From the NCBI GenBank assembly GCA_001822075.1, contig MHPK01000002.1, positions 11,872-75,871 of the forward strand: a stretch of 64,000 nucleotides of DNA. The letters are read 5' to 3'. This DNA is from Candidatus Staskawiczbacteria bacterium RIFOXYB1_FULL_38_37 (GTDB lineage: Bacteria > Patescibacteriota > Minisyncoccia > Minisyncoccales > Staskawiczbacteraceae). A program made the translations under genes and the position numbers. The notes under the pieces were generated by a model. The model saw only the letters and a list, made by a program, of their open reading frames with translations. It searched no databases and had not been told where the DNA came from. How positions within the stretch are numbered: the first letter of the stretch is position 1; the number at the start of each line of letters is the position of its first letter. Shown here in pieces: positions 3,059 through 60,114 of the stretch.

Positions 3059-3499
3059 TCAGCCTTGTTTTATTCTTTCTAGCGCTATTTCGGTGCGATT
3101 TTGGTTGTTAAAGCGAAAGTAAAAAACCAGAATCTCCTTGTCTCTTGAAATTTCCCTTATTGTCTGGACAATTTTGGGGAGGTCTTCTTTTTCTGTATGC
3201 TTGTCAGGATTTTTTCCGTACCACGCGCAGTCTTCGTGGCCGACTGCTACAACTGTTTGAAGAGACGGAAAATGGCTTAGCGCAAGAATGATTTCATCTC
3301 TGCGGGCAGTGAAGTCTCTGGGTTTTTCTTCATGGGCTAAGGGGGCCGGGCCTCCGGGAACCCTTATTCTCAAGACCTTGCTTTCTTCTGCCTCAAGCAT
3401 TGTGGGCAGCCAGTTAAAAGCAAGTTTGAAGCGCGGGTCAAAACAATCAATAATCAAAACTTCCGGATTGGCTTTTCCTGCGGGCCACGTGATACCCAT
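3059..3499 (-). CDS. Hypothetical protein with beta-carbonic-anhydrase-like CxDxR / HxxC motifs
   Basis: 146 aa. IIDCFDPRF and VGHEDCAWYG resemble the zinc-ligand motifs of the beta-CA fold, but the protein is shorter than canonical enzymes. Confidence 0.35.
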   Translation of the reverse strand: MGITWPAGKANPEVLIIDCFDPRFKLAFNWLPTMLEAEESKVLRIRVPGGPAPLAHEEKPRDFTARRDEIILALSHFPSLQTVVAVGHEDCAWYGKNPDKHTEKEDLPKIVQTIREISRDKEILVFYFRFNNQNRTEIALERIKQG

Positions 3500-3620
3500 G
3501 GGGTTTCTCCTTGTAAAGGTTCTAGCTGGTGTTCACAAAATAACACAAGAATATCATTGCATAATTTTAAAATTTTTTCAAGGTTTTAATAAATTATATT
3601 TTGATATATAATTAGAAAAT

Positions 3621-4934
3621 ATGGAGAATAATCCTAAACAAAGAGCCGAAGGCCCTGAGCAAAATCGAAGGGCGTGGGTGGTTGCAGTTGACATGGGATA
3701 TGGCCACCAGAGAACAGCATATCCTTTAGAAGATATTGCTTTTGCCAATAAAATTATCAATGCTAACAGCTATGAGGGCATTCCTAAAAAAGACAGAAGC
3801 TTTTGGCAGTCAACGCGCTATTTGTATGAATTTATTTCAAGATTCAAAAGAGTTCCTGTTTTAGGAGACTCGCTCTTTTATTTTTTAGACAGATTCCAGA
3901 AAATTCTTACCTACTACCCAAAAAGAGATTTATCAAGGCCCAATGTTACTTTAAAAAATATACATTATTTTATAAGAGGAGGATGGGGCAGAGACTTGAT
4001 AAAAAGACTGGAAAAAAACCCTATGCCCATAATTACAACCTTTTTTACCCCAGCTTTTATGGCTGAAAAATTGAATTATCCAAATGAAATTTATTGCGTG
4101 GTGTGCGACGCCGATATTAACAGGACATGGGCTGATATTGAGCCTAAAAAAAGCAAAATAAAATATTTTGCGCCATGCACTTGGGTAAGAGACAGGCTCA
4201 AGCTTTATAACGTAAGGCCAGAGAATATATTTTTAACAGGATATCCTTTGCCAAAAGAAAACATTGGCGGGTTGGATAAAGAGATTTTAAAACATGATTT
4301 GAAGCACCGGCTTTTAAACCTTGACCCGAATAAGCGCTACAGAAAAATTTATGCCCCTTTGATAAAGGGAGCTTTGGGCCAGCTGCCTGAAAAATCAGAC
4401 CATCCTTTGACAATAATGTTTTCTATAGGAGGGGCCGGCGCTCAAAAAGAAATATGCATGAAAGCTGTAAACAGCCTGAAAAAAGAAATAAAAAACCAAA
4501 AGATAAGATTTATTATTTCTTTGGGGGTGAGGCCTGAACTTAAAAAGTATTTTATAGAAAAAGTTAAAGATTTAAAGCTTGACGGCTGGCTCCATGTTTT
4601 GAGCGGGAGAACAATAGATGATTACTTTGAAAAATTCAATGAAATGCTAAGAGAAACAGATGTTTTGTGGACAAAGCCCTCTGAATTGTCTTTTTACGCG
4701 GGCCTGGGCGTACCCATTATAATAGCTCCCACAATAGGCTCTCAAGAAGATTTCAATAAAAGATGGCTTTTGCATATTGGGGCTGCCATGTCTCAGGAAA
4801 ATCCAAAGTATGCTGACCAGTGGTTTTTTGATTTATTAAACGGCGGAGATTTTGCTGAAATGGCAATGCAGGGCTTTATGGAAATAGAAAAAATGGGAAC
4901 ATACAATATAGAAAGAATTATTGGAAACCAATAA
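3621..4934 (+). CDS. GT-B glycosyltransferase, GT28 / MGDG-synthase (UgtP/MurG)-like
   Basis: 437 aa. The N-terminal DMGYGHQR (GxGH) and C-terminal WTKPSELSFYAGLGVPIIIAPTIGSQEDFN resemble diacylglycerol glycosyltransferase motifs. Confidence 0.5.
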   Translation: MENNPKQRAEGPEQNRRAWVVAVDMGYGHQRTAYPLEDIAFANKIINANSYEGIPKKDRSFWQSTRYLYEFISRFKRVPVLGDSLFYFLDRFQKILTYYPKRDLSRPNVTLKNIHYFIRGGWGRDLIKRLEKNPMPIITTFFTPAFMAEKLNYPNEIYCVVCDADINRTWADIEPKKSKIKYFAPCTWVRDRLKLYNVRPENIFLTGYPLPKENIGGLDKEILKHDLKHRLLNLDPNKRYRKIYAPLIKGALGQLPEKSDHPLTIMFSIGGAGAQKEICMKAVNSLKKEIKNQKIRFIISLGVRPELKKYFIEKVKDLKLDGWLHVLSGRTIDDYFEKFNEMLRETDVLWTKPSELSFYAGLGVPIIIAPTIGSQEDFNKRWLLHIGAAMSQENPKYADQWFFDLLNGGDFAEMAMQGFMEIEKMGTYNIERIIGNQ

Positions 4935-7058: not shown

Positions 7059-7787
7059 ATGTTGAGTATAATAATTCCGTGTTTAAATGAAGAAGAATAT
7101 CTGCCGTTGCTTTTAGAGTCTGTAAAAAAACAGAAGTTTTTGGATTATGAAATAATTTTAGCTGATGCCGGTTCAAAAGACAAAACTTTGCAAATAGCTA
7201 AAAAATATAATTGTAAAATTGTGCCAGGAGGATTGCCGTCTAAGGGCAGAAACCAAGGAGCTAAAAAAGCTAAAGGAGACTTGCTTCTTTTTTTGGATGC
7301 CGACGTTATTTTACCGGATGGTTTTTTTAAAGATGCTATAGCTGAGTTTAAAAAACGCGACCTTGAACTTGCCAGTTTTTGCCTTGTGCCTCTGCCTGAA
7401 AATAAAGTATCCTCTTTTTTTATGAATATATTTTACAACCAGCCCATTATTTTGTTGGAAAACGCTTTACCGCACGCCGCCACAGGCATTTTAATAAAGA
7501 AAGATCTTTTTGAAAAAATCGGAGGATTTGATGAAGATGTAAAACTGGCAGAAGACCATTATTTAGCCAGGAGGGCGCAAAAAGTGTTTGGAGCTAAATT
7601 GGGAATTATAAAATCTACAGAAATTTTTGTTTCCGACAGAAGATTTAGGACAGACGGCTGGATTACAATAGGCTTAAAATATATGCTATGCGAACTGCAC
7701 TTAATCTTTTTAGGGCCTGTAAAATCTGATATATTCAAATACAGGTTTAACCATTACAAAGAAGAAAAAAATATAAAAAATAAGTAA
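7059..7787 (+). CDS. Glycosyltransferase family 2
   Basis: LSIIIPCLNEEEYL N-terminus and a DADVIL (DxD) motif. Confidence 0.8.
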   Translation: MLSIIIPCLNEEEYLPLLLESVKKQKFLDYEIILADAGSKDKTLQIAKKYNCKIVPGGLPSKGRNQGAKKAKGDLLLFLDADVILPDGFFKDAIAEFKKRDLELASFCLVPLPENKVSSFFMNIFYNQPIILLENALPHAATGILIKKDLFEKIGGFDEDVKLAEDHYLARRAQKVFGAKLGIIKSTEIFVSDRRFRTDGWITIGLKYMLCELHLIFLGPVKSDIFKYRFNHYKEEKNIKNK

Positions 7788-7800
7788 AATTAATTTTGTT

Positions 7801-9102
7801 ATGACAATGTACGAGCTTCCAAAATTTGATATTTCAGAAGCCAAGAGTAAAATTTTAAAAGCCTTGGGCAAAAAAGTAGTTTGGCCGAATGTAATGCCGT
7901 ATATAATTTTGATTTTATTGGCAGGCATTTTAGTTTTTTATTCATGGATAGCATTTTTAGATTATTTTCCAGCCCATGTTCAGCAGTTAGTCCAGTATAT
8001 GCAGTTAAATGCCCCTGAAAATAACGGAACTGTTTCACAAAATCTCTATGAGTCAGCCATTTCTTACGAGCAGGCAGTAATTTCAGCCGTAAAATCAGCT
8101 GTTCCTTCTGTGGTGAGTATTGTAATTTCAAAAAATTTGCCCATTTATGAACAGCAATATGTGAATCCTTTTGGAGATTTGGGGCCTGGTTTTGAATTTT
8201 TAATTCCCCAATATGTGCAAAAAGGGACTCAATTGCAGGAAGTTGGCTCTGGCTCCGGTTTTATAGTTTCAGCTGACGGCATGGTTTTAACCAATAAGCA
8301 TGTTGTTTTAGAAAGCGCAGCTGAATACACTGTTTTTACAAATGAAGGCAAAAAATATTCCGCCAAAGTGCTGGCATTAGACCCAGCGCAGGATTTAGCT
8401 GTAATAAAAATAGAATCAGAAGAAACTTTTCAGCCTATAAAACTTGGCGATTCTTCACAAATTCAAATTGGCCAAACAGCTATTGCTATTGGAAACGCCT
8501 TGGGAGAATTTACCAACACTGTTTCGGTGGGCGTGGTGTCCGGGCTTCAAAGAACAATTTCAGCATCCGACAGAGGAGGCAGTTTTTCAGAAACGCTTCA
8601 GGGCATTATACAAACTGATGCGGCAATTAATTCCGGCAACTCGGGCGGGCCTCTGTTAAATTTAAAAGGTGAAGTTATTGGCATAAACACAGCCATGGCA
8701 GAAAACGCCCAGAGCATTGGTTTTGCAATACCAATAAACACTGCAAAAAATGACATTGAACAGGTTAAAAAAACTAATAAAATAGTTTACCCATTTTTAG
8801 GAGTCAGATATGTCTCAGTTGACAGCACGGTTCAACAGAAATATAATTTGCCTGTTGATTACGGAGTTTTGGTGTTAAAAGGCGCCAATGGCGAATCTGC
8901 TGTAACTAAGAGTTCTCCTGCCGAGGCAGCTGGCATAAAAGAAAATGATGTAATACTGGAATTGAATGGAGAAAAAATAACTGTAAATAATTTATTATCG
9001 CAGATAATCACAAAATACAATGTTGGAGACAAAGTGAATTTGAAAATTTTAAGAGATGGCCAAGAGCAAAATATTGAAGCTATTTTAGCCGAAAGAAAAT
9101 AA
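7801..9102 (+). CDS. htrA: HtrA/DegP-family serine protease with C-terminal PDZ domain
   Basis: N-terminal TM anchor. Catalytic motifs LTNKHVV (His) and GNSGGPLLN (Ser). PDZ-like SPAEAAGIKENDVILELNGEKI. Confidence 0.9.
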   Translation: MTMYELPKFDISEAKSKILKALGKKVVWPNVMPYIILILLAGILVFYSWIAFLDYFPAHVQQLVQYMQLNAPENNGTVSQNLYESAISYEQAVISAVKSAVPSVVSIVISKNLPIYEQQYVNPFGDLGPGFEFLIPQYVQKGTQLQEVGSGSGFIVSADGMVLTNKHVVLESAAEYTVFTNEGKKYSAKVLALDPAQDLAVIKIESEETFQPIKLGDSSQIQIGQTAIAIGNALGEFTNTVSVGVVSGLQRTISASDRGGSFSETLQGIIQTDAAINSGNSGGPLLNLKGEVIGINTAMAENAQSIGFAIPINTAKNDIEQVKKTNKIVYPFLGVRYVSVDSTVQQKYNLPVDYGVLVLKGANGESAVTKSSPAEAAGIKENDVILELNGEKITVNNLLSQIITKYNVGDKVNLKILRDGQEQNIEAILAERK

Positions 9103-9143
9103 AATTTGACTTATTTTTTTATTTTGCTAATATTAAAATATAC

Positions 9144-9224
9144 ATGAAAACAATAACCAGCCAAAATTATTTTTTTTATTTCAGCTTCTTTGCAAAAGGG
9201 GTTGGTTTGAGCGTTCTAAATTAA
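9144..9224 (+). CDS. Putative 26-aa leader peptide MKTITSQNYFFYFSFFAKGVGLSVLN
   Basis: Hand translation. Codons 9168-9191 encode YFFYFSFF (5 Phe, 2 Tyr in 8 codons). There is no Shine-Dalgarno, and the start lies a few nt after the predicted TSS. Confidence 0.35.
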   Translation: MKTITSQNYFFYFSFFAKGVGLSVLN

Positions 9225-9250
9225 AGAAAATAAAAATAGAAAATTCAAAC

Positions 9251-9280
9251 GAGCCCCTTTTACAAAAAGGAGCTTTTTTT
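9251..9280 (+). terminator. Intrinsic terminator in the leader of ORF 9317
   Basis: g9253-c9273, c54-g72, (c55/a71 mismatch), c56-g70, c57-g69, t58-a68 to t61-a65, a 3-nt loop, then TTTTTTT at 9274-9280. Confidence 0.5.
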
Positions 9281-9316
9281 CTGTTCTTTCACAACTTTTA
9301 CACGGAGGCACGGAAG

Positions 9317-9580
9317 ATGATTATTGTTATGAAACCGCAGGCGAACATTTTGATGGTTGAACACGTTATAAGATCTTTTCAGAAAGGAGGTTTTGACGTT
9401 CTTGTGAAAAACGGAGATGGAAAAGTTGTAATAGCTGCTATTGGTTCGGGTAATATCAATTCTGTTGCCGTAGAAAGATTATCAGGAGTTAAAACAATAC
9501 ACGAAAAGAACGATTTATTTGTTTCAACCGAGGGGAAAGGATTTGTGGAAGCGCACGAATTTTTGAAAAAATGGGATTAA
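9317..9580 (+). CDS. Stand-alone ferredoxin-like/ACT-like domain protein resembling the N-terminal regulatory (FL) domain of Thermotoga-type DAHP synthase
   Basis: 87 aa. MIIVMKPQANILMVEHVIRSFQKGGFDVLVKNGDGKVVIAAIGSG lines up by eye with my recollection of MIVVLKPGSTEEDIRKVVKLAESYNLKCHISKGQERTVIGIIGDD. A GGAGG-like box (cacggagg) lies upstream. Confidence 0.4.
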   Translation: MIIVMKPQANILMVEHVIRSFQKGGFDVLVKNGDGKVVIAAIGSGNINSVAVERLSGVKTIHEKNDLFVSTEGKGFVEAHEFLKKWD

Positions 9581-9596
9581 CCCAGGCGGTTAATAC

Positions 9597-9624
9597 TTGA
9601 CTATTTATATTTTTTTGTTATAAT
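9597..9624 (+). promoter_or_regulatory. Sigma70-like promoter with extended -10
   Basis: TTGACT 9597-9602, 16-nt spacer ending in TGT, TATAAT 9619-9624. Confidence 0.45.
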
Positions 9625-9665
9625 TATATCAGCACACTCAAAGTAAACTTTTTTTGGAGGGTTTT

Positions 9666-10127
9666 ATGAAAACCTATACTACAGGACAAGTTTCAAAAAT
9701 TTGCGGGTTAAAACCCCGCGAGGTGGCAAAATTGTTTGATAACGGCGAAATCAATGGCCACATTCAGGAAAGCAAATATAAGCGAAGAAGCCATAGACGG
9801 ATTTCTTTGAAATCTCTTATAGGATTTATGATAAAGAACGGAATTTCTTTTGATACGTTTGGAAAAGACCAAGCCGCCCAAAAAGCAATTTTGTGCCGCC
9901 TGACTGCAGATCTGGAAGCATCTATAGCAAAAGCCAAAAAACGCGGGGACATTTTTTTGAAAATTGGCCAAGATTCCGATAAGTTTGCAGAAATTATTGG
10001 AATATTGGGGTCATTGGAAAATGTCCGTGATGTTGCTAGAAATATTGCATGGGCAAAGGTCCTGAGAAGAATGGCAGAAGCCATAGAACAGCACACAAAA
10101 ATGTGCATAGCCAACTCCAAAAGATAG
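9666..10127 (+). CDS. Helix-turn-helix (excisionase/MerR-type) DNA-binding protein
   Basis: YTTGQVSKICGLKPREVAKLFDNGEINGH at the N-terminus. I prefer the ATG at 9666 (GGAGGG at 9656-9661) over the TTG at 9654 given in the track. Confidence 0.55.
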   Translation: MKTYTTGQVSKICGLKPREVAKLFDNGEINGHIQESKYKRRSHRRISLKSLIGFMIKNGISFDTFGKDQAAQKAILCRLTADLEASIAKAKKRGDIFLKIGQDSDKFAEIIGILGSLENVRDVARNIAWAKVLRRMAEAIEQHTKMCIANSKR

Positions 10128-10160
10128 TCCGCTATCTGTCAGCTGGCGGAAGCGGAACAG

Positions 10161-10185
10161 GGCGAGGACATTCTTCGCCTTTTTT
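10161..10185 (+). terminator. Intrinsic terminator after ORF 9666-10127
   Basis: ggcgagg (10161-10167) pairs with tcttcgcc (one G.U), followed by TTTTTT at 10180-10185. Confidence 0.55.
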
Positions 10186-10242: not shown

Positions 10243-12948
10243 ATGAACGGATCTAATTTTACCAACAAAGCGCAAGACGCAATAATGCAGGCCCAGCAAT
10301 TGGCTCAGGAAAAGGGACAACAGCAAATAGATGCCCTGCATCTTTTGTTTTCTTTGCTTTCTCAAGAGGGCAGTATTATTATAACAATTTTACAAAAACT
10401 GGGAGTTGATGTCGACAATTTAAAGAAAAAAGCTGAAGCGCAAATAATAAAAATTCCTGTAATTTCAACGCCAACAGCATTTGGTCAGTTTTACCTTACG
10501 CAAGACATGGCAAAAGTCTTAGACAGAGCCAGGCAGGAGGCAATGAACATGCAAGACGAGTTTATTTCTGTAGAACACTTATTTCTGGCGCTTTTAGACG
10601 TAAGGTCAAACGCAAAAGAAGTTTTAGAAAAAATTTCATTTTTCTTTGGCGAGCAGGAGGACGGAAAATTTAAAACTTCAAAATTAGACTACGAGTCGGT
10701 TTTGAAAGTTTTGTCGCAAATAAGGGGAGGTCAAAGAATTACAGACCCAGAACCCGAATCAAAATACCAGGTTATTGAAAAGTACACAAGAAATTTAACA
10801 TCTTTGGCTTCAGCTGGAAAAATCGACCCGATTATAGGCAGAGAAAATGAAATAAGAAGGTTAATGCAGATAATTTCGCGCAGGACAAAAAATAATCCTG
10901 TATTAATAGGCGAGGCGGGCGTTGGAAAAACCGCAATTGTTGAAGGATTTGCCAGAAAAATTGCCAGAGGAGACGTGCCGGAATTTTTAAGAAATAAAGA
11001 AATAATTTCTTTAGATTTGGGAGCTATAATTGCAGGAACCAAATACAGGGGAGAATTTGAAACAAGAATTAAAGCTCTGCTAAAAGAATTAAACAGAGCC
11101 AGCGGAAAATATATTTTGTTTATTGACGAGCTTCACACTCTAGTGGGAGCGGGAGCCGCGGAGGGAGCTATTGACGCTTCAAATTTATTGAAGCCGGCTT
11201 TATCCCGAGGAGAATTACGGGCTATCGGAGCTACAACTTTAAAAGAATACCAAAAATATATTGAAAGAGACCCTGCTTTTGAAAGAAGATTCCAGCCTAT
11301 TTATGTGCAAGAGCCCTCATCTGACGACGCTGTAGCCATATTAAGAGGAATCAAAGAAAAATACGAAGTCCATCATGGGGTAAAAATTAAAGATTCTGCA
11401 ATTAAAGCAACCGTTGATTTGTCCAACCGTTATATTTCTGACAGATTTTTGCCTGACAAGGCAGTTGATTTAATGGATGAAGCGGCTTCGGCCTTAAGAT
11501 TGGAAATTGAATCTGAGCCTCATGAAATTGAAAAATATAACAAAGAGCTTACCAAGCTTGAAATTGAAAAGCAGGCCTTGAAAAAAGAAAAAGGTTCTGA
11601 AAGAAGATTAAAGGCGATAGCAAGAGAGATAGCTGATTTAAAAGAAAAAACAAAGGGGCTAAGGGCAAAATGGTCAGCAGAAAAAGAATTGATTAATAAA
11701 ATAAAAGAAATAAAACAAAAATTAGACGGCCTTTCCCACCAGATAGATGTGGCCCAGAGAGATGCAGATTTGGAAAAAGTGGCTGAAATAAAATATGGAA
11801 AAATTCCTGAATTATTAAAAGAGCAGAAAACCACAGAGCAAAAATTAATAAAAATACAGAAAGAGCACCATTTTTTGAAAGAAGAGGTGACAGAAGAAGA
11901 TGTGGCGCAGGTTGTTTCCCGCTGGACAGGAATTCCGGTCATGCGTTTAATTACAGAAGAAGCTAAAAAATTAGAGACAATGGAAGTTGCTTTAAATAGG
12001 CGGGTAATCGGCCAGCAAGAGGCAATTTCAGCCATATCCAGAGCGATTAGAAGGGCAAGGGCGGGTATTTCAGAAGAGAATAAGCCATTAGGCTCATTTA
12101 TGTTTTTAGGGCCCACGGGCGTAGGCAAAACAGAGACAGTAAGGGCTTTGGCAGAATTTTTGTTTGACGATGAAAAGGCAATGATACGGCTTGATATGTC
12201 AGAATATATGGAGCGCCATACGGTTTCTAAAATTATCGGCTCTCCTCCAGGATATGTTGGGTATGAAGAAGCAGGCCAATTAACAGAGAAGGTAAGGCGC
12301 AGGCCCTATTCGGTGGTTTTGTTAGATGAGGTTGAAAAAGCGCATCCTGATATTTTTAATATCTTATTGCAGATTTTTGAAGATGGCAGATTAACAGATT
12401 CTAAAGGAAGAGTAGTTTCGTTTAAAAATACTATTATTATAATGACTTCAAATTTGGGTTCTGATTACATTAATAAAATGTCTTCTATGGGTTTTGACAC
12501 AAAAGAAGAGCAAGCTGAAATAAAATCAATGAAAGAAAAGATATTTGATTCCTTGAAAGAATCTTTCAGGCCTGAATTTTTAAATAGAATTGACGAGGTT
12601 GTGATATTCAACTACCTCAAAGAACCTCAGATTAAAAGCATTGTTGACATGGAGCTGTCAAAAGTTGAAAAGAGACTGGTTCAAAAAGAAATTAAAATTA
12701 AAATTTCAGAAAAAGCCAAAGATTTGCTTGTAAAAGAGGGTTTTGACCCGAATTTGGGAGCAAGGCCTTTAAAAAGAGTGATACAAAGGCTGATTTTAGA
12801 CCCCTTGTCTGTTAAAATAGTAACGAACGAAGTTGTTGAGGGCAATCAGGTTATAATTGATGAAAAAGCAGGAAAAATAGTTTTTGAACTTCCTAAAATT
12901 TTTCCTAAAATGCCTGACAGGCCCAAACTGGCAAAAGCCAAAAGATAA
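10243..12948 (+). CDS. clpB: ClpB disaggregase (AAA+ chaperone)
   Basis: 901 aa. Two Walker A motifs ([22 protein letters not shown]), a long coiled-coil middle domain between the NBDs, and a Clp N-domain. Confidence 0.95.
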
Positions 12949-58551: not shown

Positions 58552-60114
58552 TTGCATATGATAAAAGTTTTCAATTTTTTTGAGAAATATAATAAGCCCG
58601 TAGTTTTTAGCGGAATTGTTTTAGCTGTTCTATCTTTTTTTGATAAAAAGCTATTAGCCGGCGCAATTTTGGTTTTTTTTCTCGTTTTTTTAGCGCTGTT
58701 TTTTATCAATAAAATAAAAAACGAAAAACAAAAAAAAAATATATCAATATTATTTTTAATTTCGTTTTTTTTGCACATAATAGCAGTTCTGTTTGTTTTT
58801 TACGGAAACTTCCAGCCGTTTTCAGACGGCAGAGGCGACTATTTAGAATATAATCTTACTGCGATTGAAGTGGCAAACAGAATTGCCCAAAAAAATTTTT
58901 CCCTGGAAGAATTGCCTCTCAGTCATTATTATCCGGTAATTGTTGGCTATATATATTATTTTACTCTTCCTAAAATGATTGTTGGGGAATTATTAAACGC
59001 ATGGCTGGTAGCCCTTACGATTATATTTGTTTATTTAATAGCAAAAGAATTAGGCAGGACAGACAAAGAAGCTTTTATTACGGGATTGATAGTGAATATA
59101 TATCCCAGCCTGGCTTTTTTTGGCAGCTTGATGCTAAAAGAAGCATTTGTGGTTTTCTTTTCTACTGCCGCGATTTTGTTATCTTTGATATTGATTAAAA
59201 GATTTTCGTGGCTAACCTTTGCTTTATTTTATTTTGCTTTAATAGGCCTGACTCATTTTCGTTTTTATATAGGCATTCCTTTAATTTTTGTTTTTATTGT
59301 ATGCTGGCTGCTGTTTTCAGGTTTTAAACTAAAGAGAAGAATAATTTTTGGAGGAATTATGATTTTTTTGATGGGATTTTTACCCATGATATCAACGGTA
59401 AGTGGCTTTGAGAAAGGCTATTTTGGCATAAATGCAATATTGTTGCAGCTTAACATGAAAACAATTATTTATTATCGCGAGGTGGCGTATAATTTTAGGG
59501 TAGATCCTCGTTTTGAGAATATTAAAATAATAGATGATACTTATGAGAAAGAAGTAAACAATCCCCCTGATGATAATGTTTCTCCTGATGATAATGTTTC
59601 CCCCGATGCTAACTATTCTAATCCTGAGGTAATAAAAGTGAGTGAAATATTGGCTCAAGTTCCAGAAGGGGTTCCGGTTCCAGATATTGTTACCGATAAA
59701 GATTGGGGGCAGGATTCTTCAGTAAACATAGAAACAGGGGCAGACAACCCGATTAAATTCATAAAAAATAACCTTATTTCTTTTGCCAACGCTTTTTTTG
59801 GCCCATTTCCGTGGCAATTAAGGTCTTTAAAACACATTTTTGTATTGCCTGAAATTTTGTTATGGTGGGTTTGCCTGTTTTTTATAGCAAGGGGAATCAT
59901 AGGGTCAATAAAAAACCAATATAAGGCCATTCTGCCTTTATTGTTGTTTGGAATCATTGTCGTTGCGATGATATCTCTATATATGACCAACTTTGGGTTA
60001 GTGACAAGAATCAGAATGCCTGCCATCGTCGCTCTCTTATGCTTAGTTCCCCTTGGTTTTAGAAAGATTGAAAAAATAAAAATTCCACTATTAAATAAAT
60101 TTTTTGCAGAATGA
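58552..60114 (+). CDS. Polytopic membrane protein, GT-C/ArnT-like or polymerase-like, with an acidic Asp/Pro-rich loop
   Basis: 520 aa with at least 10 TM segments. The loop NPPDDNVSPDDNVSPDANYSNPE is encoded by an 18-bp tandem repeat. Confidence 0.45.
   Translation: MHMIKVFNFFEKYNKPVVFSGIVLAVLSFFDKKLLAGAILVFFLVFLALFFINKIKNEKQKKNISILFLISFFLHIIAVLFVFYGNFQPFSDGRGDYLEYNLTAIEVANRIAQKNFSLEELPLSHYYPVIVGYIYYFTLPKMIVGELLNAWLVALTIIFVYLIAKELGRTDKEAFITGLIVNIYPSLAFFGSLMLKEAFVVFFSTAAILLSLILIKRFSWLTFALFYFALIGLTHFRFYIGIPLIFVFIVCWLLFSGFKLKRRIIFGGIMIFLMGFLPMISTVSGFEKGYFGINAILLQLNMKTIIYYREVAYNFRVDPRFENIKIIDDTYEKEVNNPPDDNVSPDDNVSPDANYSNPEVIKVSEILAQVPEGVPVPDIVTDKDWGQDSSVNIETGADNPIKFIKNNLISFANAFFGPFPWQLRSLKHIFVLPEILLWWVCLFFIARGIIGSIKNQYKAILPLLLFGIIVVAMISLYMTNFGLVTRIRMPAIVALLCLVPLGFRKIEKIKIPLLNKFFAE
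59566..59619 (+). repeat. 18-bp in-frame tandem repeat (about 3 units)
   Basis: cctgatgataatgtttct (59566-59583), cctgatgataatgtttcc (59584-59601), and a degenerate third unit at 59602-59619. Confidence 0.7.

Follow-up and report, generated by a model that had tools for sequence, protein, structure and literature searches.

A putative leader-peptide transcription attenuator for aromatic amino acids between htrA and an orphan regulatory-domain gene in Parcubacteria

In the genome of Candidatus Staskawiczbacteria bacterium RIFOXYB1_FULL_38_37, a spacer separates htrA from a small open reading frame (ORF) that starts at position 9317 and encodes 87 amino acids (aa). The question raised by this locus is whether the spacer regulates the small gene, and in response to which signal. 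The whole stretch of DNA that was analysed, 64,000 nucleotides (nt) of contig MHPK01000002.1, is called the window here, and its GC content is 36%. An earlier reading made from the letters of the window (the sequence-only reading) had proposed that the spacer carries an attenuator of the pheL/pheA or trpL type. Our results support this proposal by the retention of the leader in relatives, the stability and covariation of the helices, the frame specificity of the codon run and the genes found behind the leader. We consider it highly likely, from comparative sequence analysis, that the element is a ribosome-mediated leader-peptide transcription attenuator that senses charged aromatic tRNA, chiefly tRNA-Phe. 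The coordinates of all features are collected in Table 1.

The leader, its helices and their conservation

The sequence-only reading had described a sigma70-like promoter, a 26-codon ORF in which seven of the eight codons at 9168-9191 are for Tyr or Phe, a helix of 18 positions with one mismatch between 9194-9211 and 9244-9261, and a terminator hairpin with seven T whose 5' arm lies within the 3' arm of that helix. All of these were found at the positions given for them. The promoter starts 4 nt past the htrA stop codon, and the TG at 9125-9126 makes its -10 hexamer (TAATAT, 9128-9133) an extended one. The mismatch in the 18-position helix is G-G (9204/9251), two further pairs are G-U, and the arms of the terminator were placed at about 9252-9261 and 9265-9274. 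The E. coli pheM peptide has a FFFYFS string in common with the leader of the window.

The 146-nt RNA of the element folds at -38.6 kcal/mol (z = -4.9), and none of 200 dinucleotide shuffles folded as well. Four segments take part in the pairing. Segments 2 and 3 form the antiterminator, and segment 4, which reads AAAGGAGCU in the window, is the 3' arm of the terminator. The terminator stem of the window contains an internal C-A mismatch (C9255-A9271) and reaches -5.5 kcal/mol alone, compared with -25.2 kcal/mol for the antiterminator. In the structure of minimum free energy (MFE), the 2:3 helix is nested in a 1:4 helix that joins 9183-9191 with 9265-9274, and the two make one long hairpin abutting the U-run. 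The 1:4 pairing was missing from the sequence-only reading and is added here. It would explain the conserved AGC Ser codon within the Phe run and, in the window lineage, the better fit of segment 4 to segment 1 than to segment 3.

The aromatic codons by themselves do not make the case. The 64 kb contain, over all six frames, 7 runs with at least seven F, Y or W codons in eight, where Markov simulations give 0.79, and the run is not statistically unusual in this AT-rich window. The sequence-only reading had itself noted that TTT and TAT are common in AT-rich DNA. One of the seven runs, FWFFFSFF at 58667-58690, was considered as a second leader and rejected, as it lies off-frame inside a 520-aa membrane-protein ORF (58552-60114) and has no associated structure; it shows the ease with which aromatic runs arise in such DNA. 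Since the run alone is not rare here and single-sequence statistics are undecisive, the case for the element rests on comparative data.

Relatives were collected in two ways. In the first, eight homologues of the ORF 9317 product were gathered by protein similarity alone (28-100% identity), which makes the set unbiased toward the leader. Wherever DNA upstream of a homologue was available, it contained the whole element, from the promoter and leader ORF to both helices and the U-run. The loci examined in this way were L003-L006, L007, L008, L009, L010, L012, L015 and L019. A relative that keeps the gene and has lost the leader or the helices, the case which the sequence-only reading had named as telling against itself, was seen in none of them. 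In the nearest relatives, the leader DNA was almost invariant while the protein had diverged to 64% identity.

In the second way, a degenerate DNA pattern for segments 1 and 2 was scanned against one genome per GTDB species and against JGI metagenomes. Chance matches were removed by a hidden Markov model of the FXD domain described below, by the ORF and by the structure, and about 34 distinct variants were kept (35 in the ORF and helix counts). They come from Staskawiczbacteria, other Patescibacteria metagenome-assembled genomes (MAGs) and groundwater metagenomes. In the genome scan only seven of the 64 matches were real (L021, L036, L042, L054, L062, L063, L077), and the others were chance matches in unrelated phyla; the metagenome matches L097, L098, L103, L106, L110 and L114 were likewise due to chance. 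The closest named genomes with the element are those of Candidatus Staskawiczbacteria and other Patescibacteria MAGs, in the lineage Patescibacteria group, Parcubacteria group. The window sequence itself is identical to the groundwater metagenome contigs JGI 3300025117 Ga0208958_1000063 and ENA ERZ28563683 ANAN16-1 scaffold_65. The family variants were used to build a model, R1, with which true members score 80-129 bits. In the window it detects a single copy, at 9159-9280 with 127 bits, and the next match on the + strand stays below 19 bits. The element very probably represents a previously undescribed family that is conserved across the ultra-small genomes of Parcubacteria and the Candidate Phyla Radiation (CPR).

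The leader ORF is kept in one frame. An ATG-started ORF spans the run in the leader frame of 34 of the 35 variants, compared with 3 and 0 of 35 in the other two frames, and the single variant that lacks a complete leader ORF lies on a contig truncated upstream. The leader peptides are 23-49 aa long across the family. Insertions in the ORF are in frame: 39 nt in L062 and 60 nt in L101 and L105, corresponding to 13 and 20 codons. The leader of L003 has two extra in-frame codons and ends with TAG in place of TAA, and the two stop codons are interchanged among relatives. The stop always lies 5-24 nt past segment 2 and ahead of segment 3.

The run contains 6-9 aromatic codons, in the order of abundance F>Y>W. 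In the 10-codon run windows of the family, 236 of the 340 residues are aromatic (F 189, Y 35, W 12). Search bias is absent from the 15 nt that directly precede the pattern, and there 61% of the codons are aromatic in frame, compared with 25% and 22% in the shifted frames. At the three codon positions adjoining the pattern, 29, 33 and 32 of 34 variants have an aromatic codon. The Trp codon TGG occurs in about a third of the variants; it is not a by-product of T-richness, so T-richness cannot explain Trp in the run. Most variants keep the Ser codon AGC within the run, with 34 AGC codons counted over the run windows.

The promoter is kept in the orthologues, with the family consensus TTGACA-16/17-(TG)nTAnnnT. 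The end of the -10 element lies 6-11 nt before the leader ATG (mode 8-9), and an SD-like (Shine-Dalgarno-like) motif precedes this ATG in only one of 34 variants. Because of this short distance and the absence of the SD motif across the family, a leaderless or near-leaderless start is predicted for the leader ORF, with the transcript beginning at its AUG or a few bases away. The missing Shine-Dalgarno sequence had been listed as a caveat in the earlier reading, and it turned out to be a conserved family trait.

The antiterminator was assessed in the MAFFT alignment A5, where the 2:3 helix joins columns 36-52 with columns 157-173. In this helix and its inner extension, 90.9% of the cells are paired, compared with at most 64% when the partner is slid by 1-3 columns. 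Double-sided changes were found in 9 pairs (53 cells), and the covariation of 0.258, against 0.125 in shuffles, was reached by none of 500 shuffles. The inner helix is 88.6% paired, with double-sided changes in four of its five pairs. The exchanges include A-U/G-C at the helix base, G-C/A-U at 9199/9256, and GGUUUGA/UCAAAC with GGCUUUA/UAAAG(C/U). Segment 2 was part of the search pattern, and segments 3 and 4 were outside it. The apical loop ranges from 24 to 100 nt in length.

The terminator hairpin has 5-10 bp and -5 to -16 kcal/mol. It abuts the U-run in 35 of 35 variants, and its 5' arm lies wholly inside segment 3 in all 35. Near the loop, 16 distinct stem sequences were counted. A loop-anchored pseudo-alignment of these stems was dropped, as it was not homologous, and a MAFFT alignment of the commoner register was used in its place. 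Here 95.5% of the cells are paired, and none of 500 shuffles reached the observed covariation. At segment-3 position 9256, the terminator pair is C-G in 8 cases, U-A in 8 and U-G in 2. As the pairs of 9256 change in both helices, one position of segment 3 covaries with both of its alternative partners. Averaged over the 35 variants, the antiterminator has -23.2 kcal/mol and the terminator -10.3 kcal/mol, and the antiterminator is the more stable of the two in 35 of 35 variants. Segment 4 pairs with segment 1 in the MFE structure of 30 of the 35. In a second terminator register, found for example in L054, the 1:4 stem ends 2 nt short of the U-run. Taken together, the greater stability of the antiterminator, the covariation in both helices and the conservation of the aromatic run, which had been suggested as checks on the sequence-only reading, all came out in its favour.

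Genes behind the leader

The product of ORF 9317 matches the FXD family PF18152 (DAHP_snth_FXD) with 36.3 bits, above the cut-off of 27. The AlphaFold2 model of the 87-aa protein has a predicted local distance difference test score (pLDDT) of 89.3, and its secondary structure is E-H-E-E-H-E followed by two helices. Its best fold matches in the PDB are N-terminal regulatory domains of T. maritima DAH7PS, with a root-mean-square deviation of 1.2-1.5 Å over 60-65 residues and 22% identity, and the next is the ACT domain of TyrR. A sequence search of the PDB with the FXD profile gave mostly spurious ankyrin-repeat word matches, and DAH7PS at E = 0.015 only. The family assignment above threshold and the fold match agree with the earlier suggestion that the regulated gene resembles an aromatic-amino-acid-binding regulatory domain. 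As modelled, the product is a standalone homologue of the ferredoxin-like (ACT-like) regulatory domain of DAHP synthase. In T. maritima DAH7PS, this N-terminal domain binds Tyr and Phe and mediates feedback inhibition. The 87-aa protein shares family and fold with it (PDB 1RZM, 1VR6, 3PG9, 4GRS; PF18152); unlike DAH7PS it is standalone, with no catalytic barrel and with a C-terminal extension, and its ligand binding is predicted.

The FXD-like protein family comprises 56 representative clusters at E<=1e-3, mostly of 77-115 aa, and no full-length DAHP synthase was found among these 56 matches. The C-terminal extension, of about 25 residues (NDLF..G.GF.EAWEF), is shared by the standalone proteins and absent from DAHP synthases, which suggests a separate function for the orphan domain.

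A standalone FXD-like protein stands behind the leader in about two-thirds of the variants. In L042 (Ca. Staskawiczbacteria Ike-100m-1), the leader precedes a full-length DAHP synthase with an N-terminal FXD domain (PF00793 5.8e-73 and PF18152), and in L089 it precedes a prephenate dehydratase (PF00800 6.6e-21). L111 carries two copies of the Phe leader, both on the - strand. Copy 1 (3412-3522; peptide MIQTSQKFYFFYFSFFEREVGLSI up to its stop codon) lies after htrA and before an operon with a 229-aa ORF and a 515-aa TyrA(PDH_N)-PheA(PDT) fusion; copy 2 (932-1065) lies after the fusion and before a 76-aa FXD-like ORF. A leader upstream of DAHP synthase, prephenate dehydratase or TyrA-PheA has the placement expected of an aromatic-amino-acid sensor. 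Small proteins without a Pfam match follow the leader in L085, L090, L095, L100, L105/L113, L112 and L115, and Pfam gave no match for the 229-aa ORF of L111 either. Within the 64-kb window, no DAHP-synthase barrel and no prephenate dehydratase gene was found.

Between the U-run and the start of ORF 9317 there is no convincing promoter; the sole scan match is weak (9/12) and overlaps the start codon. The gene has a Shine-Dalgarno sequence and, because it has no convincing promoter of its own there, would depend on read-through from the leader.

How the leader would act and what else it could be

In the mechanism that we propose, transcription would start at about 9140-9144, and the leader ORF would be translated from a leaderless or near-leaderless mRNA. 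When Phe-tRNA (or Tyr- or Trp-tRNA) is scarce, the ribosome would stall at the early codons of the run (9168-9182), where it would cover segment 1 and leave segment 2 free to pair with segment 3. The terminator 3' arm would then be without a partner, and RNA polymerase would read through into ORF 9317. When aromatic tRNAs are plentiful, the ribosome would pass segment 2 and reach the stop at 9222 in the apical region of the antiterminator, unwinding or occluding segment 2; segments 3 and 4 would then pair, and transcription would stop at the U-run (9274-9280). If the leader is untranslated, the long hairpin of 2:3 and 1:4 at the U-run would probably terminate too, making the default state OFF. 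The default-terminator role of 1:4 is put forward as a hypothesis, because a gap of 2 nt separates the 1:4 stem from the U-run in the L054-type register. Where transcription starts, where ribosomes stand, whether termination and read-through take place and what 1:4 does are inferred from the sequence and from models.

The effects of the ribosome were modelled by blocking simulated footprints in constrained folds, which cover thermodynamics only. With the A-site at 9171-9180, the 2:3 antiterminator forms and segment 4 is unpaired, which predicts read-through. With the A-site at 9186-9189, or with segment 2 blocked, the 3:4 terminator forms, which predicts termination. The folds agree with the proposed geometry for stalls on the first four or five codons of the run and for a blocked segment 2.

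Several observations weigh against this mechanism. A stall at the last two Phe codons is predicted to lead to termination and not to read-through. Once at the stop codon, a ribosome would shield no more than the distal portion of segment 2; kinetics and sterics, and not simple occlusion, would then have to keep 2:3 from forming in the replete state. The terminator of the window is weak (-5.5 kcal/mol, with its internal mismatch). Most variants, that of the window included, control orphan regulatory-domain or small proteins and not a biosynthetic enzyme. The pattern scans demanded segments 1 and 2 and so cannot reveal relatives that lack the element, and, with sequences that are related to one another, the shuffle statistics make them look more independent than they are.

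Comparison with known systems places the element beside classical attenuators. As described in two publications (PMC3082878; PMC11802643), E. coli pheL-pheA and pheM-pheST are attenuators responding to charged tRNA-Phe. Like pheL-pheA (RF01859 Phe_leader) and pheM-pheST, the element has a short leader with a Phe codon run and mutually exclusive antiterminator and terminator hairpins followed by a U-run, and in L089 it shares with pheL-pheA a prephenate dehydratase as target. It shows no homology to the E. coli Phe_leader: RF01859 gives 27.9 bits (E = 0.024) on the window element, a resemblance that stays below the gathering score of 55, and the element is analogous to that family and not a member of it. 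Unlike in pheL and pheM, the CPR leader is predicted to be leaderless and without SD, its stop lies inside the apical region of the antiterminator and not before segment 2, and its run mixes F, Y and W. The pairing is 2:3 nested in 1:4 versus 3:4, in contrast to the 1:2, 2:3 and 3:4 scheme of E. coli. The host also differs, being Parcubacteria/CPR, and so does the target in the window, an orphan regulatory domain.

As outlined in PMC11802643, the aroR leader of Corynebacterium glutamicum lies upstream of aroF for DAHP synthase (Neshat et al. 2014), and read-through goes up under Phe limitation. Going by that outline, both are ribosome-mediated attenuators with a Phe/Tyr leader, and L042 has the same leader-to-DAHP-synthase arrangement. 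The CPR run with its 6-9 aromatic codons is unlike that of aroR, given there as Phe-Tyr-Phe only; the phylum is another one, there is no sequence relationship to the leader as outlined, and the CPR leaders mostly precede standalone FXD-domain proteins. According to the abstract of bioRxiv 10.1101/834739, mycobacterial polycysteine attenuators are leaderless short ORFs with a Cys codon run, and downstream expression responds to Cys. Compared with this abstract, the CPR leader likewise appears as a leaderless short first cistron with a regulatory codon run, whereas its run is aromatic and it has a hairpin and U-run terminator and a covarying antiterminator.

Our full-text literature searches found no description of leader-peptide attenuation in CPR, Patescibacteria or Parcubacteria, which agrees with the earlier remark that ribosome-mediated attenuation is undescribed in such reduced genomes, although this is not proof that no such description exists. 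The data support a new family of a classical mechanism, which would be distinguished by its Parcubacteria host, the predicted leaderless leader, the nested pairing and the mostly orphan ACT-like target.

The promoter-to-terminator unit, of about 140 nt, could also be an independent gene with unregulated read-through, whose product would be a small hydrophobic or aromatic peptide (26-49 aa) or a trans-acting small RNA. The unit has its own strong promoter and terminator, its ORF is conserved, and the peptide termini are partly conserved, with N-terminal MNQ..N and C-terminal K(E/G)VGLSVLK. There are also precedents for attenuator RNAs and leader peptides that act in trans, such as rnTrpL/peTrpL in Sinorhizobium, as described in abstracts. 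However, the conserved C-terminal residues coincide with an RNA helix arm, so RNA constraints explain them, and the N-terminus is variable in length and sequence and takes insertions of 13 and 20 codons. An independent gene also does not fit with a downstream gene that has an SD but needs read-through for want of a convincing promoter, nor with a terminator 5' arm that is always embedded in the alternative helix, and aromatic-pathway genes downstream are a prediction of cis regulation. We give an independent gene little chance. A dual function, in which the cis attenuator yields a peptide or RNA with a role of its own, is possible.

It is a shade less probable still that a protein, such as the FXD/ACT-like product in a TRAP-like autoregulation, or a small ligand binds the long hairpin and decides whether terminator or antiterminator forms. 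Conservation of the RNA helices is high, and with a predicted aromatic-amino-acid-binding domain as the regulated protein, this would make a neat feedback loop. The conserved bases, however, lie in simple Watson-Crick stems without a pocket-like junction, and the apical loop is A-rich, varies as widely as given above and contains foreign insertions. In the 64-kb window no Rfam family, tRNA included, reached its gathering score, and thus no riboswitch, T-box or protein-binding leader did; within 8900-9800 no T-box or metabolite riboswitch matched even at E<=10. Many miRNA and snoRNA families of Rfam matched near the element at E<=10, and these were rejected as long-hairpin artefacts. The leader also stands before unrelated genes without an FXD domain (L089, L112), and binding to the hairpin would leave unexplained the frame-specific ORF, the aromatic run, the stop position and the leaderless promoter geometry.

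That the hairpin and T-run are a plain htrA terminator, next to an ordinary promoter-like match and a T-rich ORF arisen by chance in AT-rich DNA, deserves next to no credence: aromatic runs are common in the window (7 in six frames), promoter- and terminator-like matches are abundant and no other terminator lies between htrA and the hairpin, but the comparative data contradict it, with an ORF kept in one frame only over about 34 diverged variants, a frame-specific run that includes TGG, a covarying helix upstream of the terminator, a promoter at a fixed distance from the ATG, and copies of the element away from htrA (the upstream gene is a small Zn-ribbon ORF in L042 and L085, and copy 2 of L111 follows tyrA-pheA). 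The terminator may serve htrA as well, which is compatible with the attenuator.

The CPR/Patescibacteria are uncultivated, have tiny genomes with few recognisable regulators, and are usually assumed to be amino-acid scavengers. If the leader acts as a ribosome-mediated attenuator, transcription in CPR cells would be coupled to translation and tRNA charging would be sensed in the classical manner, and shikimate and Phe-branch genes would be both kept and controlled in some Parcubacteria. Shortage of aromatic amino acids would be the specific trigger for expression of a widespread, unannotated orphan ACT-like protein, which would be a hint to the function of this protein. Model R1 offers a new RNA/leader family for annotation. 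The predicted leaderless leader is of interest too, as is a pairing scheme where the untranslated state also resembles a terminator. The mechanism is a textbook one, so what makes the attenuator interesting is its occurrence in this lineage and the genes that it would control.

Flanking genes and other elements

Table 1. Coordinates of the attenuator and of the flanking features in the window
Feature	Position	Strand	Details
GT2 glycosyltransferase (glycosyltransferase family 2)	7059-7787		neighbour gene upstream of htrA
HtrA/DegP protease	7801-9102		gene directly upstream of the element
htrA-to-ORF 9317 spacer			214 nt; holds the attenuator element
Sigma70-type promoter	9106-9133	+	-35 TTGACT 9106-9111, 16-nt spacer, extended -10 TGcTAATAT 9125-9133
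Leader-peptide ORF (predicted)	9144-9224	+	26 codons and TAA, MKTITSQNYFFYFSFFAKGVGLSVLN; stop 9222-9224
Regulatory codon run (putative)	9168-9191	+	Y F F Y F S F F (TAT TTT TTT TAT TTC AGC TTC TTT)
Segment 1	9183-9191	+	AGC UUC UUU; pairs with the terminator 3' arm (segment 4) in the MFE structure
Segment 2, antiterminator 5' arm	9194-9211	+	AAAAGGGGTTGGTTTGAG; translated K-G-V-G-L-S
Antiterminator apical part	9214-9241	+	inner stem UUCUA 9214-9218 with UAGAA 9237-9241; A-rich loop with leader stop 9222-9224
Segment 3, antiterminator 3' arm	9244-9261	+	3' half 9252-9261 is also the terminator 5' arm
Intrinsic terminator (predicted)	9252-9280	+	stem 9252-9261 with 9265-9274, loop ACA, U-run (T7) 9274-9280
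Regulated gene	9305-9580	+	SD GGAGG 9305-9309
87-aa ORF of the regulated gene	9317-9580	+	
Promoter 3' of the regulated gene	9597-9665		TTGACT-16-TGtTATAAT
153-aa helix-turn-helix (HTH) protein gene			after the promoter at 9597, before clpB
Terminator	10159-10181		separates the HTH gene from clpB
ClpB	10243-12948		beyond the HTH gene and terminator

The slot between htrA and clpB holds the element nearly always across the family. The window HtrA is 56-77% and the window ClpB 83-90% identical to the proteins at the relatives' loci that carry the element. The promoter directly 3' of the FXD gene is a strong, near-consensus one with an extended -10, and it serves the gene of the 153-aa HTH_17-like protein. 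Some relatives lack this HTH gene; in L012, for example, the FXD gene is immediately followed by clpB.

We may speculate, with a rather low expectation, that in the many Parcubacteria that have lost the DAHP-synthase barrel or all aromatic biosynthesis, the attenuator and the orphan FXD/ACT-like domain have been kept and exapted as a stand-alone starvation-signalling module, in which the leaderless leader would respond to the charging of tRNA-Phe, and the small ligand-binding protein would relay the signal. If so, candidate targets would be htrA and clpB, two proteostasis genes that stand on either side of the element in nearly all loci.

A second class of leader-attenuators was observed upstream of the Phe leader in L042 (about 4470-4610) and L085 (about 3680-3840), in both cases on the - strand. 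Their ORFs, MMISQKKLNLLPCIILNLS in L042 and MNRRLDASLLLIIVLNLF in L085, each up to its stop codon, are near-leaderless behind a promoter and contain a run rich in Leu, Ile and Val. Alternative hairpins and a U-run follow, and then the gene of a 76-aa CxxC...CxxC Zn-ribbon-like protein, for which Pfam gave no match in either locus. In L042 this leader lies just downstream of htrA. Model R1 scores the leaders of this class at 37-42 bits, and none is present in the window. Given this Leu/Ile/Val class beside the Phe leader, and with the same low expectation as above, leader-peptide attenuation could be a general amino-acid-sensing strategy of regulator-poor, host-dependent bacteria.

A palindromic element of about 58-60 nt, TTCACCC(A/T)GTTAAAT...ATTTAACAGGGTAAA, with two inner hairpins, was observed in L019 (400-460), L105 (3443-3505) and L101 (about 2213-2275). 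It lies in the apical loop of the antiterminator in L019, and inside the leader ORF, in frame, in L101 and L105. Placed differently in different lineages, it looks like a small mobile repeat.

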